The notes under the pieces were generated by a model. The model did not search any database, was not told the origin of the DNA, and saw nothing but the letters and a program-made list of their open reading frames with translations. Of a stretch of DNA of 64,000 bases, positions 13,985 to 34,239 are shown in pieces. The stretch spans positions 1 to 64,000 of IMG/VR virus record IMGVR_UViG_3300033485_000001, one strand, 5' to 3'. Position 1 is the first letter of the stretch; each line of letters opens with the position of its first letter. The translations under genes and the position numbers were made by a program. This DNA comes from a virus.

Positions 13985-15123
13985 TGGAAAAGGGAGAAGC
14001 GTTGAAGAAGAAGTTGAAGACGAACGTCCGGCTGGTGCAGGACACAGATCAGGGAGCCGTGAAGTACGAGGAAGCGTTTGAGGAGAACATTCCGGGTGGG
14101 ATGAAAGGAGAGCTTCGGGGTTACCTGCTCTGCAACGCTGCCAGCGTGCGGGAGTGGATCAGGCTCGTGGAGGAGGAGAAGATCTATCCGGTTGGGCTGA
14201 TCCCGTTCCAGCAGAACGTGATCGAGACCTTCGATCTCGAGATTGCACAGATCTTCATCGAACGGAACTTCTCGAACCGCAGGCTCGACCCTGCGACCTA
14301 CAAGAAGTACGCCCGGTCTCTGGAGGCTGGTCGCTGGAGATCCCACGGCGAAGGCGTCAAGGTCTGGCTGGACAAGGAAGGGAGCTTTGGCAAGCCGGGG
14401 TTCCTGGTCATGGTGGATGCGCAGCACCGATGCTATGCGGTGACCACGTCAGGCATCCCTATCAAGCACATGAGCCTCACGCTGATCACGGACAAAGAGG
14501 CGCTCCAGTACATCGACGTGGACGCTCGTGTGCGCTCGAATGCGGACATGCGCCGTATGCGCGGCGACCCACCCAGGAAGCCGGCGGTCATGGCTGGCAT
14601 CGTGCACGAGCACTTCGACTTCCACATTCAGCATCAGAACCTCTCGAAGGTCGAGCGCGACAAGATCATTTCGGACTGCCAGTTCTCGGAACAGCTCCAG
14701 GATCTTCACAGGGGCAGCATCAGCGCGGCTTTCGTGGCTGCTGCGCTTCGATGCATGAAGGCGGACGGGGAGGGGTCACTGGTGTTCTTCCAGGCGGTGG
14801 CCGATCCTACTAATTACAGTGGCTGCATCGACGAGATCGAGAGCTACCCGGTCAAGCAGGCCCGGAAGTTCATCGAGCGCCTCCGGACCAAGAAGTTCAC
14901 TGCTGACGAGAGGACCAGGATCGAGGCGTCCAGAATCATCCAGGCGTACATGGCCTGGAAGGTCTGGAAGCCGGCGATGTCGCAGTTCTCACTGACGATC
15001 CCGGTCAACGATGAGCACAAGAGGCCGAATGTTCCGGGGATCAACGCCATACGCGGGAGGGGTCCGCTTCCTAACCGGGTCGTGAAGGAGGAGAAGGAGG
15101 AGAAGGAGGAAGTTGTACAGTAA
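13981..15123 (+). CDS. ParB/DGQHR-like protein
   Basis: NRRL...YA..L..G.W...GE...DAQHR..A...SG...ID....RSNAD pattern. Confidence 0.7.
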   Translation: MMEKGEALKKKLKTNVRLVQDTDQGAVKYEEAFEENIPGGMKGELRGYLLCNAASVREWIRLVEEEKIYPVGLIPFQQNVIETFDLEIAQIFIERNFSNRRLDPATYKKYARSLEAGRWRSHGEGVKVWLDKEGSFGKPGFLVMVDAQHRCYAVTTSGIPIKHMSLTLITDKEALQYIDVDARVRSNADMRRMRGDPPRKPAVMAGIVHEHFDFHIQHQNLSKVERDKIISDCQFSEQLQDLHRGSISAAFVAAALRCMKADGEGSLVFFQAVADPTNYSGCIDEIESYPVKQARKFIERLRTKKFTADERTRIEASRIIQAYMAWKVWKPAMSQFSLTIPVNDEHKRPNVPGINAIRGRGPLPNRVVKEEKEEKEEVVQ

Positions 15124-15988
15124 GCAGGCTGAGAGGGCCTATGGCGACAAGCGATTGATGAGCCTGATGACACGGCCACCAAGGAAGTTGCTGGAGAGCT
15201 GGTTGGGGCCGGTCAAGATAGGAGGTGAGTTTTCGGTGGCGAAGAGGGTGGCGAACCTGGCTGCGGGCAGGTTCATCTTGGACTACCTGGTGAGACACGC
15301 CCTCACGCTGGGGAAAGAGAACGAGAAACGGATGGGGATGGGGCTGGCTGGCGAGAGCCCGCTGCATGCGGCGCTGGTGCCGGCAGCCCTTGGACTGATC
15401 AACGGGATGGATCTGTACGAGTCGGATTCAATCAAGGCGGCCACAGCCAAAGCTGCTCTGATCCAGAGTCTGGATCAGCTCCGCTCGATTTCTCCAATGG
15501 CTTGGGGTAGGACCTTCAACCATCTGCGTGTGGAGAGAGTCGACTTCACCTCAGCCCGACCTGACAAGCGCGTCGGGTACTGCTACTTCGACTTCGACTT
15601 CTGCCACAATCCGTTCAACCACGAGGGGGAAGCCAGGGGTGTGATCAGATTCGTGAACGAGAACATGGATCGAAGGGGGGAACTGATCGCGTTGACGATC
15701 ACATCACATCGTGGCTTCCACAGCAGCCCCGTAGAGCTGCTTAGAGCACAGGTCCAGGTATTCGAGAAGTACCTTGAGGGGATCGGGGCGCTAATCGAAG
15801 CCAAGACGAGCTACCCGTACAGCCAGGATATCAACATCCCGATGACCCTGTTCGTGTGGATACTCCGGGTCGTCGGCCCACAAGCGAAGAACCCCGTACA
15901 GATCATCGAGTTGCTTTCCAGGAAGAGCTCGGACGCTGCGAAGAAGGCGTGGGAGACTCGAAGGAGAATGAAAGGAGAAGCCAAGTGA
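15113..15988 (+). CDS. hypothetical protein
   Basis: 291-aa ORF, start uncertain; ends AKKAWETRRR. Confidence 0.6.
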   Translation: MYSKQAERAYGDKRLMSLMTRPPRKLLESWLGPVKIGGEFSVAKRVANLAAGRFILDYLVRHALTLGKENEKRMGMGLAGESPLHAALVPAALGLINGMDLYESDSIKAATAKAALIQSLDQLRSISPMAWGRTFNHLRVERVDFTSARPDKRVGYCYFDFDFCHNPFNHEGEARGVIRFVNENMDRRGELIALTITSHRGFHSSPVELLRAQVQVFEKYLEGIGALIEAKTSYPYSQDINIPMTLFVWILRVVGPQAKNPVQIIELLSRKSSDAAKKAWETRRRMKGEAK

Positions 15989-21234: not shown

Positions 21235-21530
21235 GGGGGTGACAGGTTTCGACGGGTACCAAGACGGATGGGAGTGCGTGCCGAGCATGATCTCTAGCTC
21301 GTACAAACTGGGATCAACACACAGTTGCCAACACCGACAACTACGCTCCTCTCGCCCAAGCGGCGTGATGAGCCGTCCCGCCCTGGGTGCTTCGACCAGT
21401 GCAATGGGGCGTCATCAGAAGCAACTCCGCTGTGATGTAGTGGGCCGCCTGGAGCCTCGATCCAGGAAACGCACGTAGTTGCTCGCATCTCGAGGGTGCG
21501 CGGACGGGGGTTCGATTCCCCCCACCTCCA
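21235..21530 (+). ncRNA. ssrA: tmRNA, tag ANTDNYAPLAQAA
   Basis: 5' GGGGGTGACAGGTTTCGACG; 3' GGGGGTTCGATTCCCCCCACCTCCA with G3.U pair; pseudoknot CGAGC/GCTCG plus TGATCTC/GGGATCA; tag ORF 21327-21371 with double TGA. Confidence 0.95.
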
Positions 21531-21602
21531 TGCGGGGTGGAGCAGTGGCAGCTCGCCAGGCCCATAACCTGGAGATCGTGGGTTCAAGTCCCACCCCCGC
21601 TA
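21531..21602 (+). tRNA. tRNA(CAU), initiator (fMet)-type
   Basis: full cloverleaf; anticodon loop CCCATAA; 1:72 mismatch; A11-U24; T-loop TTCAAGT. Confidence 0.9.
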
Positions 21603-21633
21603 CCGATCGGTGAGTCGCCAGCTCACCTATCCC

Positions 21634-21677
21634 AGGCCGGCAGAGGACGATCCCCCCTCTGCCGGCCTTTCCTTTCG
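21634..21677 (+). terminator. intrinsic terminator after tmRNA-tRNA
   Basis: 13-bp stem AGGCCGGCAGAGG/CCTCTGCCGGCCT then TTCCTTTC. Confidence 0.75.
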
Positions 21678-21740
21678 CTACGGTCTGTAGTTCTGCAAGC
21701 TCCCGCCTCGGGGTATACTCGTGGGAAGAGTGGAGGCAGC

Positions 21741-22661
21741 ATGGGTTTCCCCACGAGCACCGACTATCCGGACGCCGTAGACGGCCCGCAGGTGCGTGCA
21801 GACAACGTGGACATCGTCTATGACGATGACTTCAACTATCGTGACTACCAGATCAGACAGATCCAGGCGTACCTCGGGCTCACGTCCGAGTTGATCGGTC
21901 AGGGCGTTGCGGGCAAGGGTCCCGGAGGCATGGTGAGTCCCATCGCCTCCGGGGCCGCAGCTCGCGCGATCCGTTTAGCTGCTCGTAACGCCTTCGCAGC
22001 GGGCTACGTCCTGAGCGTCGGCGACAACTACGACACGGCCTACACCGAGAAGCTGCTCCTGGACTACCTGGGTATCCTCTGGACGCTGGGCGGCATCGAT
22101 GCCTCCGCGATGCTGAAGGTCCCGAAGACCGCCCTTCCCGCGCCTGGGGTTGCCGGGCGTCTCCAGTGGGATCCTGTTGCTCTGTCTCTTGCCTACGACG
22201 ACGGCGTCGCGTGGAACTTGATCGGCGGCGCTGCCGCTGGCGGCTACCTCGACTGGGTGTGCAACTTCTCCTACACGGAGGCTGCGGCACCGATCCAGGA
22301 GCTGATGGGTTCCGGGGTCTTCGACGGCGGCACCGTCGGATCCATGGAGGTCTACTTCCGCGCCTCGCTGGACCCCAGCCTGTCCGCAGGATCGACGACG
22401 GTGACCCTCTTCGACCTCGGGGACGTGGGATCCCCGCCTGGGGTTCCAAGGACCGTAGGCACCCTCGTGGCAACCACGAACGGCCTCCAGTATCTGGAGA
22501 CCGCCTCCCCAGGGTTCACTGTGGTGGACCCGCCTGCGGTGCCGGGTCCTGGAGAGATCTTGTCGACACCGCGCCTCTACGAGATCTGCATCACCTCGGC
22601 TGCGGTGGTTGGGGACACGGTCCTCGTTTTCTCCTGCGGCCTTGACGTGAGGTCGCCATGA
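21741..22661 (+). CDS. virion or tail-fibre anchor-like structural protein
   Basis: N-terminal FPTSTD...DNVDIV...N..I..IQ..LG pattern typical of phage fibre attachment; Gly/Ala-rich beta composition. Confidence 0.6.
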   Translation: MGFPTSTDYPDAVDGPQVRADNVDIVYDDDFNYRDYQIRQIQAYLGLTSELIGQGVAGKGPGGMVSPIASGAAARAIRLAARNAFAAGYVLSVGDNYDTAYTEKLLLDYLGILWTLGGIDASAMLKVPKTALPAPGVAGRLQWDPVALSLAYDDGVAWNLIGGAAAGGYLDWVCNFSYTEAAAPIQELMGSGVFDGGTVGSMEVYFRASLDPSLSAGSTTVTLFDLGDVGSPPGVPRTVGTLVATTNGLQYLETASPGFTVVDPPAVPGPGEILSTPRLYEICITSAAVVGDTVLVFSCGLDVRSP

Positions 22662-23788
22662 TCTTCGTGAGGAACGTCAGGACTCCGGACCTGACAGCAA
22701 CGTGGTCGGCGCATGCCGCGACGATGCTGATTCGCGAGCTCCTCCTGCTTGCCGACTGGACCGATCAGTCCATCACGACAGGACCCATCGGGCCAAGCGC
22801 AGATGCGGCCTGGGCGACGTGCCTTGTCCTCGCCGCGACGTCTCCGAACGGGGTCCAGGTCGCGGCGGCGAACCCGCGCGAGATCTACGACCCGCTGGCC
22901 CGCTTCACCGCAGCGATGGTGAACCAGATCATCACCTTGAAGGGGACGCTCAACAAGGGGATGTTCAAGATCGTCGAGTACGTCGATACGAGCCACGTCA
23001 AGATCGACGTACAGACGGCACCGCCTCTGGGTTGGACGGACGAGTCCGACATCCCGGCGCGGATCGTCAACGTGACGCTGGCGCGGCTTGCGGCCGGGGC
23101 GCAGTTCCTCTCGCAAGCGCCGTCCTCGAACCTCCAGCTTCGCGTCCAGCAGCCGACGACCTCGACGTGCTACTGCTACGCGCGCCCACGCGGCGGTGCT
23201 GGGGTGGCGACCGAAGCCAATGCCGCAATGGATACTGGGATCGCGAATGGGACGGACACGTACTTGCGGTTCAATGCCGTGCTCGATGGACCGAACGCCG
23301 CGATCTTCTTCACGTCTGCCTACGGGTGGCGGTTCGTGATGTGCGGCGAGCTCACCGACACCGACACCGGGGACAACGACCCCGGCTTCCTCTGGTGGGC
23401 CTGGAACTCCAGCTATCACATCACGAACATGACGGCTGGATCGTCGCTGTGGATGCTGAACCATCTCGATGCGCGGCTCCAGGCGTACACCACGTTCCCC
23501 AAGGCGTTCACTGGAACCGACGTAGCGAGCATGTTCTACAACTCCCAGTTGCGACGATTGCAGGATGGACGACCGGGCCGGCTTCATCTGCGACGTCCAA
23601 AGGTTGTCGGTGCCGACTCGGCTGGGACGGCGTGCGTGAGGGGTAAGCTCCCACTGATTCGTGTCTGCGTGCTGGGCCTGGAGATCTACAGACCCATCGA
23701 TGCTGCTGGGAACTGGATCCATATGAGGGCTGGGCTCGTGCTGCCACGCAACGGACCCAACGATCCCTTGCCGATCACTGGAGGCTGA
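22658..23788 (+). CDS. cassette 1 protein A (putative tail/receptor-binding component)
   Basis: paralogous to 26104 and 29598 (GWTDE, QAP, NGPNDPLP). Confidence 0.65.
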   Translation: MIFVRNVRTPDLTATWSAHAATMLIRELLLLADWTDQSITTGPIGPSADAAWATCLVLAATSPNGVQVAAANPREIYDPLARFTAAMVNQIITLKGTLNKGMFKIVEYVDTSHVKIDVQTAPPLGWTDESDIPARIVNVTLARLAAGAQFLSQAPSSNLQLRVQQPTTSTCYCYARPRGGAGVATEANAAMDTGIANGTDTYLRFNAVLDGPNAAIFFTSAYGWRFVMCGELTDTDTGDNDPGFLWWAWNSSYHITNMTAGSSLWMLNHLDARLQAYTTFPKAFTGTDVASMFYNSQLRRLQDGRPGRLHLRRPKVVGADSAGTACVRGKLPLIRVCVLGLEIYRPIDAAGNWIHMRAGLVLPRNGPNDPLPITGG

Positions 23789-23789
23789 G

Positions 23790-25757
23790 ATGGCGAAGCA
23801 CTACATCAGGGACGCCAGGATCGCGATGGGGGTCAACTCCTACGAGATGGGGCAGCAGAAAGCTCGCCACATCCTGTACCACTTCCTTCGCGTTGCTGGG
23901 TGCGAGTGGCTCTGGGAGTGCGACGGAGCAAGAGGTCCGTGTAGCGAGAACGCGAACCACGTCTACGATGGAGATATGGGCGAGAGCGGGACCGGCTACT
24001 GGGCTTCAGAGGGGGGCGGCACGTTCTCGAAGGACTCAACGACGAAGTTCACTGGCACACAGAGCCTAGAGGTCGTGTCGAGCTCCGGTGGAGCAAGTGG
24101 AGTCAAGAGTTCTGCGCTGATCAGCATGCAGAACCCGCAGACGCTTACCATAGGTACTAGCGACTCGATCCTTTCCGTCGGCAATGGAAAGCTCAAGATA
24201 CACGATGCTGCCAGCGGCATCTACAAGACGTTTCATGGCGGAAGGGTCATTCTCTCTGGATGTAGTATCCCTGGCAACAATGGGACGTTTCCCATCGTTG
24301 GCAGTGAACACGTCGCTGTCTCGGACACGGACGTTTACATCTACAACCCGAGCGGCTCGACTGAGTATCCAACCGCTGCGACTGGCATCTTTCAGGCGAA
24401 GTACGAGCTCTCGATCTGGGCGCTGAACGACTCCGGTGTGTCGTGGGACGTGCAGGTTGATCCAGGAACAGGGAGCCCCGCGTCTGTCGGGTCGATTCCA
24501 TCGGACGGGGTCTGGACAAGGTACCACTTCACGTTCTACCGAACCGGAACTGGATCCAACTACATCTACGTCCTGTCCGCAACGAGCGGGAAGACGATCT
24601 ACATCAACGGCATCCACGTGTTCAGGTCGGCCTACGAGTACTTCAACGAGAACAAGTACGGCACTGGCGGAACGGTAGCAGCACCTGATCTGTTCACGCC
24701 AGGAGGGATGACGCCTACCGGAGACGACACAGGGAAGTGGCTCTTCATCTGGGACACCGGCGTTCCGAGCAACAGTGGTGCGTACAAGATCACCGGCCTT
24801 TCGGGAGGCGCGTACCAAGTCGATCTACGGTCTGGCTCGATGGTCTTCGATCCAGTGGGAAGCTCGGTGGTGAGATGGCGGATCGTTGACGTGGAACTCA
24901 CCGCTCTACCAAGCGCAAGCATCCAGGTTCAGGACTGCTGGCTGTGTGGGATCGGATTCGGGTTGGAGTCGCCACACAGTTCGCACTGGCGCCTGTTCAT
25001 GCGAGATACCATACAGGACGGCTATAGCGCCAGGGCGCGTCCTGCCATCCTCTGGGCTTCCCCAGAGGACACAGACTTCAACATCTCCTCTGGCACGTTC
25101 TACAAGACCGGACCCTCGACACAGAGAAGTAGGACTGGGCCGTACCTCTGGGAGGGGGGCGAGCTCTACTACTGGTCGGGTGGCAAGGCGTACACGTCTG
25201 TTGATCGCTCATCACGCTACTTCGTGATGACAGATGATGATGTCTCGTTCGTCACGCACTACCAGTGGAGCGTCACCAGGGTCGTAGGAGATGCCGTTGG
25301 GTTCGTGGGGTTCACAGGAACTGATCCGAACTACCCCGACGAGGAAGAGTTCGCCCTGCTGTTCGGCAAGCCGGATAGCATGTCGGGATCACCAGACAGC
25401 GAGATGGCCTTCACCGGCGCGGACGGCACGTTCCTCTCAGACGGTTCCGGCTTCACGCCGGAAGGGCTGGCCATCAGGACCATCGGGGCTGTGTTCGGCT
25501 ATGGGCAAGCCGCCCTGTCGGTCATCACGCAGGCGAATGCCTGTCCAAGCCCGTGGTCCGGTGAGGAGCACATCGACCCGCTGTTCATCGTGCGCGATCC
25601 TGACACGCTCGGCGGGGCTCCAGGAGAGCGCGAGCTGACGAACGGGCTGTTCATGGCCAGGCAGAACCTGCCCCAGCTCGCCACGTTCGACTCGGGGAAC
25701 TACCTGCACTTCACGTCCGGGCTCGTCTGGGAGTGGAACGGGGCGACGCTGGCATGA
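23790..25757 (+). CDS. cassette 1 protein B (putative receptor-binding protein, CBM-like segment)
   Basis: YHFLRVAGCEWLWECD, NNGTF, NSGAYKI, VDLRSG; paralogous to 27280 and 30767. Confidence 0.65.
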   Translation: MAKHYIRDARIAMGVNSYEMGQQKARHILYHFLRVAGCEWLWECDGARGPCSENANHVYDGDMGESGTGYWASEGGGTFSKDSTTKFTGTQSLEVVSSSGGASGVKSSALISMQNPQTLTIGTSDSILSVGNGKLKIHDAASGIYKTFHGGRVILSGCSIPGNNGTFPIVGSEHVAVSDTDVYIYNPSGSTEYPTAATGIFQAKYELSIWALNDSGVSWDVQVDPGTGSPASVGSIPSDGVWTRYHFTFYRTGTGSNYIYVLSATSGKTIYINGIHVFRSAYEYFNENKYGTGGTVAAPDLFTPGGMTPTGDDTGKWLFIWDTGVPSNSGAYKITGLSGGAYQVDLRSGSMVFDPVGSSVVRWRIVDVELTALPSASIQVQDCWLCGIGFGLESPHSSHWRLFMRDTIQDGYSARARPAILWASPEDTDFNISSGTFYKTGPSTQRSRTGPYLWEGGELYYWSGGKAYTSVDRSSRYFVMTDDDVSFVTHYQWSVTRVVGDAVGFVGFTGTDPNYPDEEEFALLFGKPDSMSGSPDSEMAFTGADGTFLSDGSGFTPEGLAIRTIGAVFGYGQAALSVITQANACPSPWSGEEHIDPLFIVRDPDTLGGAPGERELTNGLFMARQNLPQLATFDSGNYLHFTSGLVWEWNGATLA

Positions 25758-26104
25758 CTGTGATCCTCTCCAACAAGGTCGATGACAGGGAACCCTGGGA
25801 TGGGTTCATGCTCCTCAACGCCCAGGTCTCCACGTCAAGCAAGGCAGACGACTCCGCTGCATGGGAGTTCCTGACGCGGATCGCGCAGAACGACCATGAC
25901 TCTGCCTTCAGGTACTGGCCCTATCCCCTTCCCGGCGGGGTGCTGGCCAAGTACAGGAACAAGTGCAGGGACAGCTCAACGCTTCAGTGGGTCGAGTGGG
26001 TCACCGACTACGAGGACATCTACGGGACGGAGTACCCCGGTGCGGGCTTCGACCCCGGCACGTACAGGGTGATCAACATCACCTATGACCAGGGGCAGGG
26101 CTGA
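25754..26104 (+). CDS. cassette 1 protein C
   Basis: YPLPGGVLAKYRNKCRD...EYPGAGFD. Confidence 0.7.
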   Translation: MTVILSNKVDDREPWDGFMLLNAQVSTSSKADDSAAWEFLTRIAQNDHDSAFRYWPYPLPGGVLAKYRNKCRDSSTLQWVEWVTDYEDIYGTEYPGAGFDPGTYRVINITYDQGQG

Positions 26105-27267
26105 TGATCTTCGTGCGAAACCTCAGAAGCCCCACGATGGGGGCCGACAACCTGATCTCCCACGTCACCTCGCTCTACCTGAAGGAGCTTCTCCTCCTTG
26201 GCGGCTGGACCTTCATCTCCGACAACTTGGACGCAGCCTGGGCGACCTGTACCCTCGTCAATGAGCTCGGTGGTGCGAGTGGGTTCCAGGTCTCCGCCGC
26301 GAACCCACGCATCGTGTACAGCTCGGCTGGCGTCTTCACTTCAGCCCACGTCACGAACGAGTGCTCCATCTTCCTCAGAGCGACGAACAGCGAGAACAGG
26401 ATCGCCGCAAGGATCATCGTCTACATCGACGCGAACCACGTCGAGGTCGACTCGGACAGCGCCCCTCCCGATGGTTGGACCGACGAGGGCGGCGTCGGCG
26501 CGTACATCCCAGGGCGCATCATCAGCCCCAAGGCGGCGACGCTGGCAGTGGGGGCCTGGGTCGTGCTCCAGGCTCCGGTAGGGAATCATCACGCCAGGAT
26601 CCTGCGGAACGCCACGCTCGTCACGCGCTGTTTCTCCCGCCCCCTCGGCAAGCTCGGCACTGCGACGGAGACGCCGACGGCCGGCATCGACATCACCACC
26701 GTCGCGGTGAGCCGCTTCGTCATCCTGCACGCCGTCTTCGACGGGGACAACGCACTGGTCTACGGCACGGGCAAGGGAGCGACCACAGAGAACCCAGTGA
26801 TGCTGTGGGGAACACTGGAGGAGGCGGCGACAGGAGACTCCAACCCAAACTTCGTCTACGGCGGCGGCAACATGGCCGGATCCCATCCTGGGGCCTGGCC
26901 GATGGGGATGCTCGACGCAAACCCGACGCCCGCTGCGATCTCGGCGATGCCTGCCTCGGTGAAGTACTACGGGGACAGCATGGGCAACATCTACCACTAC
27001 ACCATCGATGCCAACCAAGCCTGGCGTCTCCAGAACGGCAAGCCGGGGAAGTACGCACTCCGTCGCCCGCTCGTTGTCCTGGCGAACAGAGCGACATACG
27101 GTAGCGGAGTTCGAGGAAGGATGCCAATGATCAGGTTTGGGAATACGAACCTGGAGCGGTTCAGGCCCGTGGAGGCGGCTGGGTCGTGGCTGCACCTGAT
27201 CTACGGCTTCTCCGTTCCAAGGAACGGACCCAACGATCCGCTGCCGCACATCGCATACGCGACGTGA
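26104..27267 (+). CDS. cassette 2 protein A
   Basis: MIFVRN start; GWTDE; NGPNDPLP. Confidence 0.7.
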   Translation: MIFVRNLRSPTMGADNLISHVTSLYLKELLLLGGWTFISDNLDAAWATCTLVNELGGASGFQVSAANPRIVYSSAGVFTSAHVTNECSIFLRATNSENRIAARIIVYIDANHVEVDSDSAPPDGWTDEGGVGAYIPGRIISPKAATLAVGAWVVLQAPVGNHHARILRNATLVTRCFSRPLGKLGTATETPTAGIDITTVAVSRFVILHAVFDGDNALVYGTGKGATTENPVMLWGTLEEAATGDSNPNFVYGGGNMAGSHPGAWPMGMLDANPTPAAISAMPASVKYYGDSMGNIYHYTIDANQAWRLQNGKPGKYALRRPLVVLANRATYGSGVRGRMPMIRFGNTNLERFRPVEAAGSWLHLIYGFSVPRNGPNDPLPHIAYAT

Positions 27268-27279
27268 TGGAGATCGACG

Positions 27280-29304
27280 ATGGCATTCCACTACGTGAGA
27301 GATGCTCAGTTCGTTTCGACGCCGCGATATCACGGTAACTGGGCCGAACGATCTCTCTTGATGTACCACTTCCTTCGTGTCGCGGGCTGCGAGTGGATCT
27401 GGGAGTGTGACAGCGAACGGAACACGACGTTGGACTGGAACCATGTCGACGACGGGAACATGGAGCTGTCCAGCACGACTCCGTACTGGAACCCACTCGG
27501 TACAGCACTTCTCAGCAAGAACGATTCGATCTTCCAGCGTGGGACGCGCAGCTTGAGGGTGATCGCCCAGGCGCAGAACGATGGCGTGAAGACGTCCGCG
27601 CTTCAGGGCATGACTGGGATCGCCACCGGATTCCTGGACGCCTACAACGAGGGGTTCTCTGGACCGCTCAGCGGGGTGATGACAGCGACCTGTTACTACT
27701 ACAGCGGTCTCAGCAAGGAGTTCAACAATGGCTACGTCACGATCTCCGGAGCCACGAACCCTCCGAACAACGGCACGTTCCTAATCCAGTCCAGGACGAC
27801 GACACTCGACATCAACTACTACAATCCAGATGGGGTTGGTGTCCTTCCCGACACGGCCTCGGTCGTGGCGCGTGTACGATATGAGATCGTTCTCTGGGCC
27901 AGGAACAGCAGCGGCGTGACCTGGAACGTTACTGTCGACCGTGGCGACGGATCCGACTACGTGGTGGGCACGATCCCTGACAACGGCGGCGTTTGGACGC
28001 AGTACCACTTCTACTACCTCACCCAGGGGAACGGCTCGCAGTTCATCAGCGTGATCGATCCGTCCACATCTTTCATCACGCCACACGAGATCTACCTCGA
28101 CTCGGTGACGGTGTTCCGCTCCGACTTCGAGTACCCACCTGAGAACGCCTATGGAGATGGAGAGGCCGGTCACTACCCACAGGACGGGGAGTTGATCAAC
28201 CCGGATCGGTTCAAGTCGGCCAGCTACGTCCCTGGGCCGACAGACGTGGGGAAGTACGTCTTCGTCTGGGATCCCACGAACCCGACGAATAGCGGCGCGT
28301 ACAAGATCATTGCTGACTTGGGTGGGGGTGTGGTTCAGGTCGACCTCCGTTCCGGCACGGCCGCCTTCACCGCTGTTGGGCCTGGGCTCCGCTGGAGGAT
28401 CGTAGACTTCCGCAGAGTCGAACGAGCGGGGGGCAACTACGAGTTCCCTGCGTACCAACTCGCGGGTGGCGTAGGGATCCAGTCGAAGCACAGCTCGAAG
28501 TGGCGGTTGATCATCAGACACATCCTGATGCAGGGCGGAACCATCCCCAGCAGAGGGACGAACCTCATGGCCGCTCCGGAGGATACCGAGATCGACTCGA
28601 CCTCGGGGCACTTCCGCAAGACCGGAGGCGGCGGACCCTCCACGCTGAAGAACAGGCAGTCCGAGTATTCGTACTGGGCAGGGAGCACTCCGCCTTCGGG
28701 GCTGCATCACATCACATGCCATCCCACGTCTGGGAATGCCAGCGAGACGACGAGAACCTTCCTCGTGACTGACGACGACTGCTCCTCCCTGACCGTGATC
28801 CATCGAGGCACGGTGTCTGGGTTGATAGGCAGCGTCGTCGTAGGTTACGCCGGAGCTGACTCGGATCATCCGGGCATCGAGGAGTTCATCCTGTGGGCGA
28901 AGTGCGAGCTGAGCAACTACCCCGACGAGATCGATCTGGAGGGTGGTACGTCGTATCTCTCCACGATGTGGAACGGAGCCACGGTGTTCTCGCCTGACGG
29001 CTTCGCCGTTCCAGGGATCCTGGGACTCATCAGCATGAAGGAAGGCGGCGACGGGAACGTGGTGAACAACCAGGCCAACGCCGGTCCGAATCCATGGTCG
29101 GGAGAGGAGACGCTGTACCAGCCCCACATCATCAGAGACCACGAGGGAGTAAACGGCTGTCCCTCGACCAGGATCGCCTCGGGTCTGCCCGTGTACCTGT
29201 GTCGAGTGAACATGCCGACGTGGACCACGTTCGACTCGGGGAACTACTACCACACGAGCCATGGCGTGTGTTTGAAGTGGAACGGGATCGGGACGCTGCC
29301 ATGA
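27280..29304 (+). CDS. cassette 2 protein B
   Basis: YHFLRVAGCEWIWECD; TFDSGNY. Confidence 0.7.
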   Translation: MAFHYVRDAQFVSTPRYHGNWAERSLLMYHFLRVAGCEWIWECDSERNTTLDWNHVDDGNMELSSTTPYWNPLGTALLSKNDSIFQRGTRSLRVIAQAQNDGVKTSALQGMTGIATGFLDAYNEGFSGPLSGVMTATCYYYSGLSKEFNNGYVTISGATNPPNNGTFLIQSRTTTLDINYYNPDGVGVLPDTASVVARVRYEIVLWARNSSGVTWNVTVDRGDGSDYVVGTIPDNGGVWTQYHFYYLTQGNGSQFISVIDPSTSFITPHEIYLDSVTVFRSDFEYPPENAYGDGEAGHYPQDGELINPDRFKSASYVPGPTDVGKYVFVWDPTNPTNSGAYKIIADLGGGVVQVDLRSGTAAFTAVGPGLRWRIVDFRRVERAGGNYEFPAYQLAGGVGIQSKHSSKWRLIIRHILMQGGTIPSRGTNLMAAPEDTEIDSTSGHFRKTGGGGPSTLKNRQSEYSYWAGSTPPSGLHHITCHPTSGNASETTRTFLVTDDDCSSLTVIHRGTVSGLIGSVVVGYAGADSDHPGIEEFILWAKCELSNYPDEIDLEGGTSYLSTMWNGATVFSPDGFAVPGILGLISMKEGGDGNVVNNQANAGPNPWSGEETLYQPHIIRDHEGVNGCPSTRIASGLPVYLCRVNMPTWTTFDSGNYYHTSHGVCLKWNGIGTLP

Positions 29305-29594
29305 GTGTGATCATCGTCGGCGCACGAGTTCAGGACCTTGTGGACTGGGAGTTCCTTGTACGGCCCTCTGGTGTCGATCCGACCATGGACAGGGACGAGA
29401 AGTGGATCTACCCGTCACGGGGTGGTGTGCGGGCGAGCTACAGGCAGAAGTGCCGCGACACCGTGACGGGGTTGTGGACGGAGTGGAGCTCCTTGCTTCG
29501 CGCAGATCCTCATGGGAAGGAGTACCCTGGAGCTGGGTTCGACTCCACTACGTACAGGGTCGTCGGGGTCACCCATGACAGGGTTCAGGAGTAG
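29301..29594 (+). CDS. cassette 2 protein C
   Basis: GGVRASYRQKCRDTV...EYPGAGFD. Confidence 0.7.
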   Translation: MSVIIVGARVQDLVDWEFLVRPSGVDPTMDRDEKWIYPSRGGVRASYRQKCRDTVTGLWTEWSSLLRADPHGKEYPGAGFDSTTYRVVGVTHDRVQE

Positions 29595-29597
29595 CAG

Positions 29598-30764
29598 ATG
29601 ACGTACTACGCGCACAACGTCTGGATGCCGCCGATGGCACTCGCCGATGGATACGGCCCCAGCTCCATGACGGTGATCATGCGACACCTGGCCTGGTGGG
29701 CGGGCTGGACCGAGGTCAGCCTGACGAACCCCGGCGACGCCTTCTGGACCACGTCGAAGTGCATCGAGGCCGTGGCCGGGATCGGAACCGGATTCGAGGT
29801 CCAGGCGTCGCAGCCCGGCATCATCTATGACCCCCTCGGACGCTTCACCGCTGCGATGGCGACGAACCGTTACGTCGTCTTCCTCAAGGGGACTGGGCAG
29901 AACAGGGTCGCGGCCCACATCGTGGCATACATCGACGCGAACCACGTCCGACTCGGCTTGGAGTGCCTCGACAGCGCAGGCTGGGCCGACGAGCAGGGCA
30001 TCGCGGCCCGCGTCATCGGAGGAAATTCAGGAGGCACGACAACGTTCGCGAACGGCGCCTTGGCCTCGGGTCAGTCCGTGCTTATCCAGGCCCCGGTCGG
30101 GAACCTTCGCGTCAGGATCTACTACCAGGACGTCAGTAACATCCTGTTCTACGCACAGCCGAAGGGCGGTGCTGGTACGGCGACGGAGACGACGGGTCGC
30201 GGTCTCATCTCATACGCCACGAACTGGATCAGGTTCAACGCCGTCATCGACGATCACAACCTGCTCGTGTGGGGAGTGGCCGACGAGGGTGGCAACGTGA
30301 CGAACCTGTTCGTCATGCTCGTCGGAGAGCTTGAAGACGTCGACACCGGAGACACTGATCCCGGCTTCTTGTACGGATACTCCGATCTTGAGACGAACAT
30401 CCCTTGGTATCTGGAGGTGTACCAGCTCAACGGTGCTGGAACTCCAGCGGCGATCACCGGCTACCCCGTCTACCCAAAGTGGCACACCGACACAGCATGG
30501 TCCAGCTCGTTCGTCAACCTGAGCGCGACGAAGCTGGATTGCGACAAGGCCCCGGTCTACAAGTTCCTGGTCCACCTCGACAACATCCTGACCGTCGGGG
30601 CCTGCTTCCGTGGAAGGATCCCTCTTGTCAGGGGGACGTGGACGGGCTTCGAGAGGTTCCGTCCGCTCGATGCGGCGAGGAACTACGTCCACCTCGTCAG
30701 CGGCCTGATCGTACCTTACGGTGGCCCAACAAAGCCTGCGCCCATCGGCGCGTGTGGAGCATAA
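29598..30764 (+). CDS. cassette 3 protein A
   Basis: GWADE, QAP, ERFRPLDAA. Confidence 0.7.
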   Translation: MTYYAHNVWMPPMALADGYGPSSMTVIMRHLAWWAGWTEVSLTNPGDAFWTTSKCIEAVAGIGTGFEVQASQPGIIYDPLGRFTAAMATNRYVVFLKGTGQNRVAAHIVAYIDANHVRLGLECLDSAGWADEQGIAARVIGGNSGGTTTFANGALASGQSVLIQAPVGNLRVRIYYQDVSNILFYAQPKGGAGTATETTGRGLISYATNWIRFNAVIDDHNLLVWGVADEGGNVTNLFVMLVGELEDVDTGDTDPGFLYGYSDLETNIPWYLEVYQLNGAGTPAAITGYPVYPKWHTDTAWSSSFVNLSATKLDCDKAPVYKFLVHLDNILTVGACFRGRIPLVRGTWTGFERFRPLDAARNYVHLVSGLIVPYGGPTKPAPIGACGA

Positions 30765-30766
30765 AG

Positions 30767-32752
30767 ATGGCACTCAAGCACTGGGGGCGAGACGCCCTGA
30801 GAGCCGAGGACTTCGCGGTCTACGCCGGCAACCAAGAGTTCGCCATGATGATGCAGTACCACTTCCTCCGGACCGCAGGGTTCGAGTGGATCTGGGAATG
30901 CGACGGCGAGGTGGGACCGGCCAGCGCGATCCCGAACCACTGCGACGATGGGAACATGGAGCTGAGTGACATCACCAGGTGGGATGCCTACGGCTCTCCT
31001 CCGGCCACCGTGACGAAGGACACGACCACGGTCAGGAGTGGATCTCGCAGCTTGAAGATCGTGGCTGCCGGCACCCATACGGGTGTCGTCAGCGACGCAC
31101 TCCTGAGCATAGGGAATCCTATCACGTTCTCGGGAAGCGCCGGTGACTCGCTGACTGGACCCGACGTGAACGGGACGATGGTCCTCTACGACGACGGATC
31201 GTCCTTCGGCTACAACCACACGAACAACAGGATGGTGTGCAGCGGGTTCTCGAACCCGGCCAACAACGGCACCTTCCTCGTACGGGATCCGGTGTATCAG
31301 GTACCGACCTCGTACCTCAAGTTCTACAACCCCAGCGGCGTCGCCCAGGTCAACCTGACCGGAGCGACGGTGAGGTTCGACAAGCGGTACACCATCGCGA
31401 TCTGGGCCTTGATCGGTTCCGGACTCGTCGATGGCTACTGGAAGGTGGAGGTCGATCCTGGCGACGGGTCGTGGGTCGAGCTGGGCCAGCTGGCTCTGGG
31501 GGACGACTGGCAGCTCAACATGTTCTCGTTCTACGCCGTTGGCACCGGGTCTCGATACATCCGGATCACCGACACCTACGGCGGCAGGACGTGCTACATC
31601 GACGGCGTCCACGTCTTCCGCTCCTCCTTCGAGTACGCCCCGGACAACGTCTACGACGCCGACCCCAACAACCCAACCGGCGTGCTCACGAACCCGGACA
31701 GGTTCTCCGTCTCCGGCGGCGGTTACACGCCGGGCAAGAAGGACATCGGGAAGTGGCTCTTCGTCTGGGATGAGAACCACAACAAGAACAGCGGCTTCTA
31801 CAAGATCATCGCCGACCTTGGTGGGGGCGTGGTCCAGGTCGACATGCGCTCTGGATCGGCCACGTTCACGACGTCGGGTGTCGGCGAGTACGTGAACTGG
31901 CGCATCGTCGACGTCGACGCCCAGGGTCACAACTGCTGGGACAAGAGCTGCAACTACGTCTACTCGTTCGGCTACGGCCTGAAGTCGCCGCACAGCTCGG
32001 GCTGGAGGTTCTTCCAGAGGATCAGTCACTACTACGACAGCTCTGTCACAACATGGGCAGCACCAGATGATGAGGCGGACTTCGACTTCAGCAGCGGGCA
32101 GTTCTACACCAACGGCCCCTCGACTCAGCGAAGCATGGACCTGCCGTACTCCTTTCAGGTGTACGCGCAACGCCATCACTGGCTCGGAGAGTACAGCTCG
32201 GGTACGGCGCCGACGACGCGGAACACCCTGATGACGGATCAGGACCGGAGCTTCGTCTTCTTCATCCATCGCGGCGTTCTTCCGTTCTCCCAGCACCACT
32301 GCCACTTCATTGGCTACACCGGAGCCGACCCCGATCATCCCGGCATTGAAGAGTTCGCGATGCTGACTCCGTGGAACACTGCGAACTACGACGACATCAG
32401 CTTCACCACGTACGGCTTTGGCTACTACGGGGTCGGGTTTGATCCGAACGGCATCGCTATCCCTACCATCGCCGGCTTCATCGGCTGGCAGTCATCGAAC
32501 ACCTACCCGTTCAACATCTCCAACGCCGGCCCGAACGCCTGGTCTGGAAAGGACTGGTTGATCCCGCTCATCATCGTCCGTGACCCCAACGGATCATACG
32601 GTTGCTTCTCGATCAGGGAGGCTGACGTCGGCCTGTACATGGGCAGATCGGCGAACATTCCCAGCTCCTACATGACGCTGGACTCGAATGCCTTCCAGTA
32701 TCTCAGGTACTCCCTGGTGATGGAGTGGAACGGCGAGTCCATCATCGCATAG
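30767..32752 (+). CDS. cassette 3 protein B
   Basis: YHFLRTAGFEWIWECD; NSGFYKI; VDMRSG. Confidence 0.7.
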   Translation: MALKHWGRDALRAEDFAVYAGNQEFAMMMQYHFLRTAGFEWIWECDGEVGPASAIPNHCDDGNMELSDITRWDAYGSPPATVTKDTTTVRSGSRSLKIVAAGTHTGVVSDALLSIGNPITFSGSAGDSLTGPDVNGTMVLYDDGSSFGYNHTNNRMVCSGFSNPANNGTFLVRDPVYQVPTSYLKFYNPSGVAQVNLTGATVRFDKRYTIAIWALIGSGLVDGYWKVEVDPGDGSWVELGQLALGDDWQLNMFSFYAVGTGSRYIRITDTYGGRTCYIDGVHVFRSSFEYAPDNVYDADPNNPTGVLTNPDRFSVSGGGYTPGKKDIGKWLFVWDENHNKNSGFYKIIADLGGGVVQVDMRSGSATFTTSGVGEYVNWRIVDVDAQGHNCWDKSCNYVYSFGYGLKSPHSSGWRFFQRISHYYDSSVTTWAAPDDEADFDFSSGQFYTNGPSTQRSMDLPYSFQVYAQRHHWLGEYSSGTAPTTRNTLMTDQDRSFVFFIHRGVLPFSQHHCHFIGYTGADPDHPGIEEFAMLTPWNTANYDDISFTTYGFGYYGVGFDPNGIAIPTIAGFIGWQSSNTYPFNISNAGPNAWSGKDWLIPLIIVRDPNGSYGCFSIREADVGLYMGRSANIPSSYMTLDSNAFQYLRYSLVMEWNGESIIA

Positions 32753-32759
32753 AGGGATC

Positions 32760-33047
32760 ATGGCAACAACGATCACGTCGATGGAACCAGTGGATCGAGT
32801 GGAGTGGGAGATGCCGCTCCGTGGATCTTCTTCGTCCAGCGCACGCTCAGGCTCGAAGGTGTACCCATACCCGATTCCTGGCGGTGTCAGAGCGAGCTAC
32901 AGACAGAAGTGCAGGGACACCGTCAGCGGATCGTGGACGGAGTGGGAGACCTACTACCAGGACATCTACGGGAATGAGTACCCTGGAGTCGGATTCGACT
33001 TCAGCACCTTCAGGGTAGTCGGGATCACCTACAGCCGCGAGCAGTAG
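32760..33047 (+). CDS. cassette 3 protein C
   Basis: YPIPGGVRASYRQKCRDTV...EYPGVGFD. Confidence 0.7.
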   Translation: MATTITSMEPVDRVEWEMPLRGSSSSSARSGSKVYPYPIPGGVRASYRQKCRDTVSGSWTEWETYYQDIYGNEYPGVGFDFSTFRVVGITYSREQ

Positions 33048-33115: not shown

Positions 33116-33712
33116 TTGGGAAAGCTGGACGACTGGCTTCAGCGGAAGCTCGGGGGCCACGTCTCCCTCGGGCCGGTCACGGTGTACGGCTTCAACGCCA
33201 TGCACGTGGCCATCAACGTCTGGACGAAGAAGTGGGGCTACGTCTGCTTCCACCCTGATCTGAGGTTCCTGGGGCGTTTCGCCCCATGGATGCTCGGGAA
33301 GGAGTGGCCCTGGCACTTCTACGCGAGCAAGAACGCGACGCCGTGGGCGTCGACGTTCGCCATCGGACCTGGCATCGAGCATGACGAGAAGATCAACGCC
33401 GTCCGCCGCTGGGCGATGTGGGGGCACAACTACAGCGACGACTACAACCCGCAGGCCGAGAACGAGTTCTTCTGGGGCTACGTCAACGAGCTCAAGAGGG
33501 AGAAGGAGCTGCGGAAGGCGGAGGCCAACGGGATCTGTGGCGCCTGCGGCGAGAAGCTCACTCCAGTGGAGAGCTCGAACAGCAACGTCTGCCTCAAGTG
33601 CTTGCTGCGTGAGATGGAGCGCATAGCAAGCCGGATCAGAGAGCAGGAATCGATGATTCAGGCCCAGGCACCGGACGACTCTCAGGATCCGGAACGCGAA
33701 GGGTGGAACTGA
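33116..33712 (+). CDS. hypothetical protein with C-terminal zinc finger
   Basis: TTG start after GGAGG; CGAC...CLKC. Confidence 0.65.
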   Translation: MGKLDDWLQRKLGGHVSLGPVTVYGFNAMHVAINVWTKKWGYVCFHPDLRFLGRFAPWMLGKEWPWHFYASKNATPWASTFAIGPGIEHDEKINAVRRWAMWGHNYSDDYNPQAENEFFWGYVNELKREKELRKAEANGICGACGEKLTPVESSNSNVCLKCLLREMERIASRIREQESMIQAQAPDDSQDPEREGWN

Positions 33713-33714
33713 TC

Positions 33715-34239
33715 ATGCACTGGGAAGCGTGGTGCTTCGAGATGGCGAAGACAGCGTCGCTGAAGTCCAAGGACAGGTCCACGCGAGTGGGCTGCGTCGT
33801 CTTCGGCCCGGACCGCGAGATCAGGACCGTCGGCTACAACGGCTTCGTCCGTGGCGCCGATGATTCGAGGGAGGAGTGGCACCAGCGCCCCCTCAAGTAC
33901 AAGGTCACGGCTCATGCCGAGCTCAACGCGGTCTGCAACGCCACGCGCTGCGGCACCACGCTCAAGGGATGTGCGGCCTACATCACGCTGCCGCCGTGCT
34001 CGACCTGTGCGTTGGCCATGGTTCAATCCGGTATCTGTTCGGTCAACTTCCTCGTTCCCCTGGACAACAAGAACGGGGTGGATGATCGTTGGAAGGATGA
34101 CTTCCGCATCGCCCTCGACATCTTCACCGAGGCTACGGTGGACTACGAGGGCTACAGCGGAGAGTGGGACGAGAGCGGACTGGACCCGAAGGCCGACGAG
34201 GTCGAGACATGGATCACGAAGATCCAGGAGGGAGCGTGA
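33715..34239 (+). CDS. dCMP deaminase (CMP/dCMP deaminase family)
   Basis: SKD.STRVGCV, GYNG, HAELNA, PCSTC. Confidence 0.9.
   Translation: MHWEAWCFEMAKTASLKSKDRSTRVGCVVFGPDREIRTVGYNGFVRGADDSREEWHQRPLKYKVTAHAELNAVCNATRCGTTLKGCAAYITLPPCSTCALAMVQSGICSVNFLVPLDNKNGVDDRWKDDFRIALDIFTEATVDYEGYSGEWDESGLDPKADEVETWITKIQEGA

Follow-up and report, generated by a model that had tools for sequence, protein, structure and literature searches.

The first 64 kb of a virus record of 178,539 bp (IMGVR_UViG_3300033485_000001; completeness rating 100%, G+C ≈ 62%), hereafter called the window, carry ten genes on the plus strand (21741–33047, 11.3 kb) that follow each other without any real gap in the order U-A1B1C1-A2B2C2-A3B3C3, such that an anchor gene, U, precedes three copies of a three-gene unit. 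This cassette probably encodes a tail-borne, carbohydrate-binding adsorption module, built from exchangeable A·B(·C) units on the U anchor. The three units are paralogous; A and B share a predicted fold with a pair of tail-fibre proteins of Pseudomonas phage JBD30; the module lies among baseplate and fibre genes in relatives, where its copy number varies, and units recombine individually. Because fold and synteny point the same way, a role in the tail and in adsorption is the best reading, and we infer that the products would be located on the virion of this phage, that A would pair with B, that C would act as a small accessory subunit, that sugar would be bound, and that the three units would be displayed in parallel.

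Three paralogous units and the predicted folds of A and B

Unit 1 consists of A1 (22658–23788, 376 amino acids (aa)), B1 (23790–25757, 655 aa) and C1 (25754–26104, 116 aa), unit 2 of A2 (26104–27267, 387 aa), B2 (27280–29304, 674 aa) and the small accessory protein C2 (29301–29594, 97 aa), and unit 3 of A3 (29598–30764, 388 aa), B3 (30767–32752, 661 aa) and C3 (32760–33047, 95 aa), with which the operon ends. The repeat period is ≈ 3.45–3.5 kb, and the gene junctions are tight, with ATGA overlaps between B1 and C1 and between B2 and C2, 1-nt overlaps, or else spacers of 1–12 nt; B3 was started at the ATG located 2 nt past the A3 stop codon, and not at the upstream TTG of the mechanically called open reading frame (ORF). 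The tightly coupled, consecutive A-B-C units reported in an earlier note on this DNA are thus found where that note placed them, all on the plus strand. Pairwise identities amount to 36–39% among A1, A2 and A3 (A1–A2 37%), 38–42% among B1, B2 and B3 (B1–B2 38%), and 44–49% among C1, C2 and C3; the corresponding BlastP E-values (1e-58 to 1e-127 in the A and B families, 1e-21 to 1e-27 in the C family) exclude chance as the source of this likeness. Searched with profile hidden Markov models, the whole genome of 178,539 bp yielded three members each of A, B and C and a single U, and no more. The motifs regarded in the earlier note as a fixed scaffold, YHFLR.AG.EW.WECD, NNGTF, NSG.YKI and VD.RSG in B, GGV.A.YR.KCRD and EYPG.GFD in C, and GW.DE and QAP in A, all fall into invariant columns of the three copies. 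A1 is shorter (373–376 aa in the window and in the related locus L014) than A2 and A3 (388 aa). Within B, divergence is greatest in a small domain nested in the carbohydrate-binding module (CBM) described below and at residues ≈ 481–560.

A host-range cassette operated by inversion or by a diversity-generating retroelement (DGR) was considered and ruled out by repeat searches, which gave no near-identical direct repeats and no long inverted ones. Direct repeats between units are merely 60–88% identical over 20–130 nt, and inverted repeats do not exceed 24 nt, with 74–83% complementarity. No reverse transcriptase, template/variable repeat pair or invertase was found, and each of the ten operon genes belongs to U, A, B or C.

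Searches of sequence databases name none of the four families. With A, B, C and U as queries nothing in Pfam or PHROGs rose above threshold, the sole signal being a sub-threshold match of B to CBM_4_9, and sequence profiles of the PDB returned nothing beyond chance-level rows for B, U and C. Among 50,697 GenBank phages no relative was detected by megablast with the region or by tblastn with B2 and A2. A word-indexed search of 5.8 billion proteins retrieved 19 relatives of B, 8 of A and 30 of C, and when 1.84 billion representatives were searched exhaustively by profile, the A family grew to 79 clusters at 50% identity; in both searches all relatives are unnamed metagenomic proteins, and all four families are known solely from uncultured phages. 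The statement of the earlier note that these families are not recognised therefore holds at the level of sequence, profile searches of A, B and C having named no family; it does not hold at the level of fold, at which A and B match gp47 and gp48 of JBD30.

The fold assignment was derived from AlphaFold2 models of A2 (14 sequences, predicted local distance difference test (pLDDT) 81.6, predicted template modelling (pTM) score 0.86) and of B2 (20 sequences, pLDDT 82.7, pTM 0.86), both of them predicted queries that were compared in an all-against-representatives structural search. The A2 model matched the JBD30 baseplate structure (PDB 8rk3, chain c/K, 317 aa) with a Z-score of 16.2 and a root-mean-square deviation (rmsd) of 3.9 over 237 aligned residues, the next match having Z 7.3. 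The B2 model matched 8rk3 chain c with Z 18.2 and rmsd 4.1, with 262 of the 317 residues aligned and the alignment spanning model residues 4–668; for both models the next unrelated fold lies at Z ≈ 7, far below 8rk3 chain c/K. Foldseek matched the 305-aa JBD30 chain at probability 1.0. According to the JBD30 record gp47 has 318 aa and gp48 307 aa, and the chains were assigned to these proteins by gene length, the 317-aa chain being gp47. On the basis of the models, A and B are both predicted to possess the gp47/gp48 fold, which in B2 would be made up of residues ≈ 1–45 and ≈ 290–674; for A1 and B1 the fold may be taken over from the A2 and B2 models, respectively. A and B are adjacent at every locus and match the same JBD30 chain; they have a colinear C-terminal motif in common (hhalign E 0.0037), and the models exhibit the same N-terminal strand-helix-strand element. 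A and B are distant paralogs of each other. Toward gp47 and gp48, which themselves belong to no Pfam family, they are classed as fold-like and works-like and not as members of one sequence family.

In JBD30, gp47 and gp48 resemble each other in fold and pair as heterodimers; each of the three bent lateral tail fibres is assembled from three such heterodimers, is fixed to the distal tail protein as well as to the upper baseplate protein, and takes hold of the type IV pilus (PMC11445458). The authors of that work suggested a hydrolase relationship of the nitrilase type for gp47 (PMC11445458). For A, a nitrilase-type hydrolase was rejected, as such a family is absent both from the Pfam matches of gp47 and from the fold matches of A. 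An endosialidase or depolymerase was rejected likewise, the matches being limited to residues 49–144 of A (Z ≈ 6), which form a small beta-barrel of a kind often seen in tail proteins of phages. In BFVD, the A model has among its neighbours entries annotated as 'virion structural protein'. Three consecutive UniProt accessions in the same database, A7KUT2, A7KUT3 and A7KUT4 (267–293 aa), all match the A fold, which suggests another phage with three adjacent paralogs of it.

The special feature of B is an insertion of ≈ 245 residues after residue ≈ 45, which in the B2 model forms a jelly roll of the CBM22/CBM4/CBM16 type (≈ 46–290) and encloses a nested small beta domain of ≈ 80 residues (≈ 111–189, the NNGTF region). 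Residues ≈ 44–282 superimpose on PDB 4xun, 4xup, 2w5f and 4bj0 with Z 15–16.3 and rmsd 2.2–2.5, the CBM22 domain 4xun giving Z 16.3 and rmsd 2.5, and Foldseek matched B2 to CBMs at probability 1.0, with template modelling scores by target of 0.6–0.72. Compared with CBM22, CBM4 and CBM16 (PF02018), the same jelly roll is predicted for B; unlike in CBM22 and CBM4, the module of B is inserted into another fold, bears the nested domain of ≈ 80 residues, and scores below the Pfam cut-off, the match of B2 to CBM_4_9 (PF02018) reaching 14 bits against a gathering cut-off of 25.9. This family is weakly matched by 3 of 20 members of the B family at E < 0.1 (best 7e-4), and a precomputed PF02018 match is on record for the B homolog of L015. 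Modules of the CBM type also came up as structural-search matches in TSP4 of phage CBA120, gp52 of Kp7 and the fibre of Pa193. The modelled jelly roll of B may bind carbohydrate.

Two small sub-domains of B, the NNGTF domain and the NSG.YKI...VD.RSG domain, recur in single or repeated copies in large fibre-like proteins adjoining the cassettes of relatives, those with repeats of the NNGTF domain having 940–1550 aa; neighbours with such sub-domains are located at L001:12332-15148, L011:13451-16282, L012:6226-10869 and L004:15260-15820. In long A variants of relatives (459–469 aa) the NNGTF domain is present as an insertion.

Copy number, exchange and genomic sites in relatives

Compared across relatives, the cassette comprises one, two or three units. 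One unit is found at L001, L003/L007, L004 and L009/L010 and on the P0014 contig, two on the P0004 contig and at L011, the latter having both of its U-A-B-C modules complete and each equipped with a separate U. At least two units are present at L012, the contig of which begins inside the first A gene; L002 has two A-B pairs and three C-like genes, and L015 more than two B genes. Three units are found in the window and at L014, in the same order and with copy-by-copy orthology (U 52% identical); contigs of the L014 type are present in 18 assemblies. The A, B and C proteins of the window are 55, 60 and 63% identical to those of L014 in unit 1, 80, 91 and 71% in unit 2, and 71, 61 and 57% in unit 3. 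Along the same lines, sliding DNA identity between both loci rises to 77–93% over ≈ 25850–29700 (≈ 6550–10400 in L014), as compared to 55–70% elsewhere. This stretch of high identity, which covers late C1, A2, B2, C2 and early A3, marks a recombination tract, unit 2 having been exchanged between phages recently.

In the tree of B proteins each copy of the window is sister to a copy of another phage, B2 grouping with L001 and B3 with P0006, from which it follows that the three units are old lineages. The flanking genes of L002 are 45–80% identical to those of the window, A and B merely 35–40%; in L014 the flanking genes are 41–45% identical and the cassette genes 52–91%. This mismatch between cassette and backbone implies that the cassette, and single units in it, move between phages, a mobility typical of host-range determinants. 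A recent duplication in situ was considered and rejected in view of the sister pairs in the B tree and of the between-unit DNA repeats with their identity of only 60–88%. Of the proposal in the earlier note that a trio was duplicated twice and diversified, the paralogy and the divergence stand; the units, however, are old lineages and no recent local duplication, the whole triple array is shared copy by copy with L014, and units are exchanged between phages.

The number of three units also bears on an alternative arrangement, in which a single lateral arm consists of three diverged segments: A1B1 would be proximal on U, A2B2 and A3B3 would come next, the C proteins would clip neighbouring segments together, and the whole would be one composite fibre with three lectin domains instead of a set of three alternative receptor binders. 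Such an arm would resemble that of JBD30 with its exactly three gp47-gp48 heterodimers (PMC11445458), and it would account for the three units, in the same order and orthologous copy by copy, in the window and in L014, for unit-specific features kept in both phages (the N-terminal extension of C1 and the shorter A1), and for the single U that serves three units. On the other hand, relatives manage with one or two units, each unit of L011 has its own U, and docking-type motifs are conserved in all three copies and not just in unit 1; moreover, unit 2 alone was exchanged, which presupposes interfaces that are compatible and is easier to reconcile with independent units. The serial arm is regarded as unlikely. 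If true, it would represent a subfunctionalised arm of the JBD30 type, single segments of which are re-tooled by recombination, as for unit 2, and a new route to a multivalent, multi-specific fibre from non-trimeric parts.

As to the reading as a tail-borne module, the genomic sites of the module in relatives are of importance. In L004, L012 and L014 it is located between, or directly upstream of, homologs of a Baseplate_J-like gene and a DUF2793 gene. In the present genome these two genes are adjacent (82318–91078): the Baseplate_J-like gene occupies 82318–86103 (PF04865, 26.6 bits against a cut-off of 21.1; phrog_6, baseplate wedge), and the DUF2793 gene, assigned in PHROGs as 'tail fiber protein', 86468–91078. 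In L014 (1–19849) the whole U plus three A-B-C units is inserted between their homologs; the site of the 11-kb cassette thus differs between related phages, as genes that are adjacent here flank it there. On the more distant P0014 contig, Phage_base_V and GPW_gp25 are followed by a number of unknown genes, by A-B-C and, farther on, by a holin; a Pfam search of the whole present genome for GPW_gp25 and Phage_sheath_1 found nothing. The adsorption function put forward in the earlier note is consistent with this synteny in three relatives, with the fold that A and B are predicted to share with the tail-fibre-forming proteins of JBD30, and with the CBM-type domain of B.

In L002 and on the P0004 contig the cassette is found at the same site as in the window, namely from a tmRNA/tRNA pair or an HU-like gene to the gene of deoxycytidine monophosphate (dCMP) deaminase. 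These flanks, together with the fact that CBMs are usually appended to enzymes, have to be considered in favour of a non-virion function, whereby the cassette would be an accessory module, placed among metabolic genes, for intracellular or secreted carbohydrate-active or surface-modifying proteins, engaged, for example, in superinfection exclusion or polysaccharide degradation; the hydrolase relationship proposed for gp47 would fit as well (PMC11445458). The sole whole-chain structural match, however, is a virion tail protein, no catalytic domain or enzyme family was found in Pfam or fold searches, and the module is embedded in a baseplate/fibre block in L004, L012, L014 and the P0014 contig. 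In addition, large phages often scatter their fibre genes. A function outside the virion is therefore considered very improbable.

Organization of the module and known systems

The anchor protein U (21741–22661, 306 aa) has homologs in L002 (55% identity) and L004 (48%) in addition to the one in L014. Its N-terminal part is variable among relatives; the C-terminal domain of ≈ 150 aa is conserved and always encoded directly upstream of an A gene. This domain stands alone in proteins of 205–210 aa in L001, L008 and L011, and it ends a 584-aa protein (L003:6509-8263) with six DHxH motifs at a spacing of 31 residues. Trimeric phage fibres, T4 gp37 among them, typically have metal-binding His-x-His repeats. 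The description of U as a fibre-anchor-like gene ahead of the units is supported both by the constant position of its C-terminal domain before A and by the DHxH-repeat protein of L003.

As for C, its C-terminal 60 residues are the best-conserved part of the whole unit, and C1 carries an N-terminal extension of ≈ 21 aa that is kept in the L014 ortholog. Neither C nor its family profile matched any Pfam, PHROG or PDB sequence entry, any known chaperone family included. In L002, U is followed by a gene of 323 aa and a weak C-like gene, and then by A, B, A, B, C, C (L002:7602-8862, 14785-15397), the second B having 559 aa and no nested domain; it follows that C need not directly follow its B. On the P0004 contig, and probably at L009, a small gene lies between A and B. 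C may be a non-structural assembly chaperone for B that is absent from the virion, comparable to the small genes found after many tail-fibre genes, with U, A and B as the only structural components, and this is held as a tentative possibility with a likelihood somewhat below one half: the protein is small (95–116 aa), its gene is located immediately 3′ of B, with the ATGA overlap in two of the three units, and its position in relatives is flexible (A-B-A-B-C-C plus the third C-like gene in L002; P0004 and probably L009). Conversely, no Pfam, PHROG or PDB sequence match links C to a known chaperone family, and the strong conservation of its C-terminal 60 residues suits a structural contact as well.

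Taken together, the module may be pictured as follows. U would be a short fibre or anchor, attached to the baseplate by its variable N-terminus and offering its conserved C-terminal domain as the docking site. By analogy with gp47-gp48, A and B would pair as heterodimers, from which a lateral, arm-like fibre of non-trimeric make-up would be assembled and which U would hold at the baseplate periphery; the CBM22/CBM4-type jelly roll of B and its hypervariable nested domain would be the likely contact with host surface polysaccharide. In this picture C is a small subunit whose synthesis would keep pace with that of B, and it would serve as assembly factor or chaperone, or as a clip. The three units would then be exchangeable modules with shared docking motifs and different exposed parts, such that the virion may display three different glycan-binding units, with a broader or more robust adsorption range as the consequence. 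Several points weigh against this picture. The family profile of A gives an hhalign probability of 0.2% to gp47 and gp48, so the link is one of fold, drawn from predicted models and a single solved structure. C and the CBM have no equivalents in JBD30, the arms of which bind a pilus and not a glycan. In the present genome the cassette adjoins tmRNA/tRNA and the dCMP deaminase gene, outside the baseplate block, and the fixed number and order of the three units in L014 would be explained by a serial arrangement no less well than by parallel display.

Among known systems, gp47/gp48 of JBD30 (PDB 8rk3) is the closest in kind, with two adjacent genes for proteins of similar fold that the A and B models match over the whole chain, and with heterodimers that build a lateral, non-trimeric arm for the first contact with the host (PMC11445458). 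There, a single gene pair is used three times per arm, whereas three diverged pairs are encoded here. The insertion of B, with its CBM and nested domain (≈ 245 residues), is absent from gp47/gp48, and the cassette adds C and the dedicated anchor U. JBD30 is a siphophage of 37 kb with the pair located after the tape-measure gene; the relatives considered here are phages of ≈ 180 kb with the module after the Baseplate_J-like gene. The ligand of JBD30 is the type IV pilus, and its proteins have no detectable sequence similarity to A and B.

Several receptor-binding proteins per virion are found in CBA120 (TSP1–4), phi92 and Klebsiella phage K64-1. Their genes are arranged in tandem, are diverged, with shared attachment parts and variable distal parts, and are thought to widen the host range; the products are homotrimeric tailspikes or fibres, mostly beta-helix depolymerases encoded by single genes. 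In contrast, the present cassette repeats a three-gene set, with a heterodimer-type fold, a lectin domain and no recognisable enzyme. Fibre-plus-chaperone or switchable cassettes are represented by H/G of P2, S/U of Mu with Gin inversion, and the DGR of BPP-1. With these the cassette shares, by prediction, the arrangement in which a small co-translated protein comes after a large protein of the distal tail, in a locus that sets the host range; unlike there, diversity would be encoded in parallel and not switched.

Multi-receptor phages and pairs of a fibre with a small gene are thus known already, and heterodimer-built arms are known from one phage; new are the four families, the fold assignment, the architecture of a CBM within a gp47-type fold, and the three-gene unit that is repeated thrice and exchanged as a module. 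This gives structural and functional access to four families of proteins that are unnamed in databases, and it would extend the heterodimer-built tail arm, known from JBD30 alone, to large phages with complex baseplates. Furthermore, what is repeated in the diversification of host range can be a set of several genes, moving and recombining as one module. Should the lectin specificities differ, the cassette would be an example from nature of several receptors being recognised in parallel, and new scaffolds for glycan binding could be drawn from it.

Boundaries and layout of the operon

In this genome the cassette is situated between tmRNA/tRNA and the dCMP deaminase gene. ARAGORN located a transfer-messenger RNA (tmRNA) at 21235–21530 (tag ANTDNYAPLAQAA) and, abutting it without spacer, a tRNA-Met (CAT) at 21531–21604. 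The upstream boundary on the plus strand (21635–21740) was read from the sequence: a GC-rich hairpin with a T-rich tail (21635–21667) lies 3′ of the tRNA-Met and directly 5′ of the cassette, and a TATACT box resembling a -10 element as well as a GGAG-rich ribosome site precede the start codon of U. The TATACT box may act as a promoter. U starts at 21741; the mechanically called ORF 21537–22661 overcalls it, since tmRNA, tRNA-Met and hairpin occupy 21235–21667.

Promoter- or terminator-like sites inside the region did not exceed shuffle expectation, and the ten genes are best read as one late-type operon. Long ORFs of 367–540 aa on the minus strand (22577–23722, 26341–27444, 27781–29262 and 30716–32338) were rejected as genes, as GC content by codon position favours the plus-strand genes; they are best explained as shadow ORFs arising in DNA of high GC content. 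The spacer 3′ of C3 (33048–33180) contains a TATAAG box, and beyond it follow an ORF of 176–198 aa and then dCMP deaminase (33703–34239).

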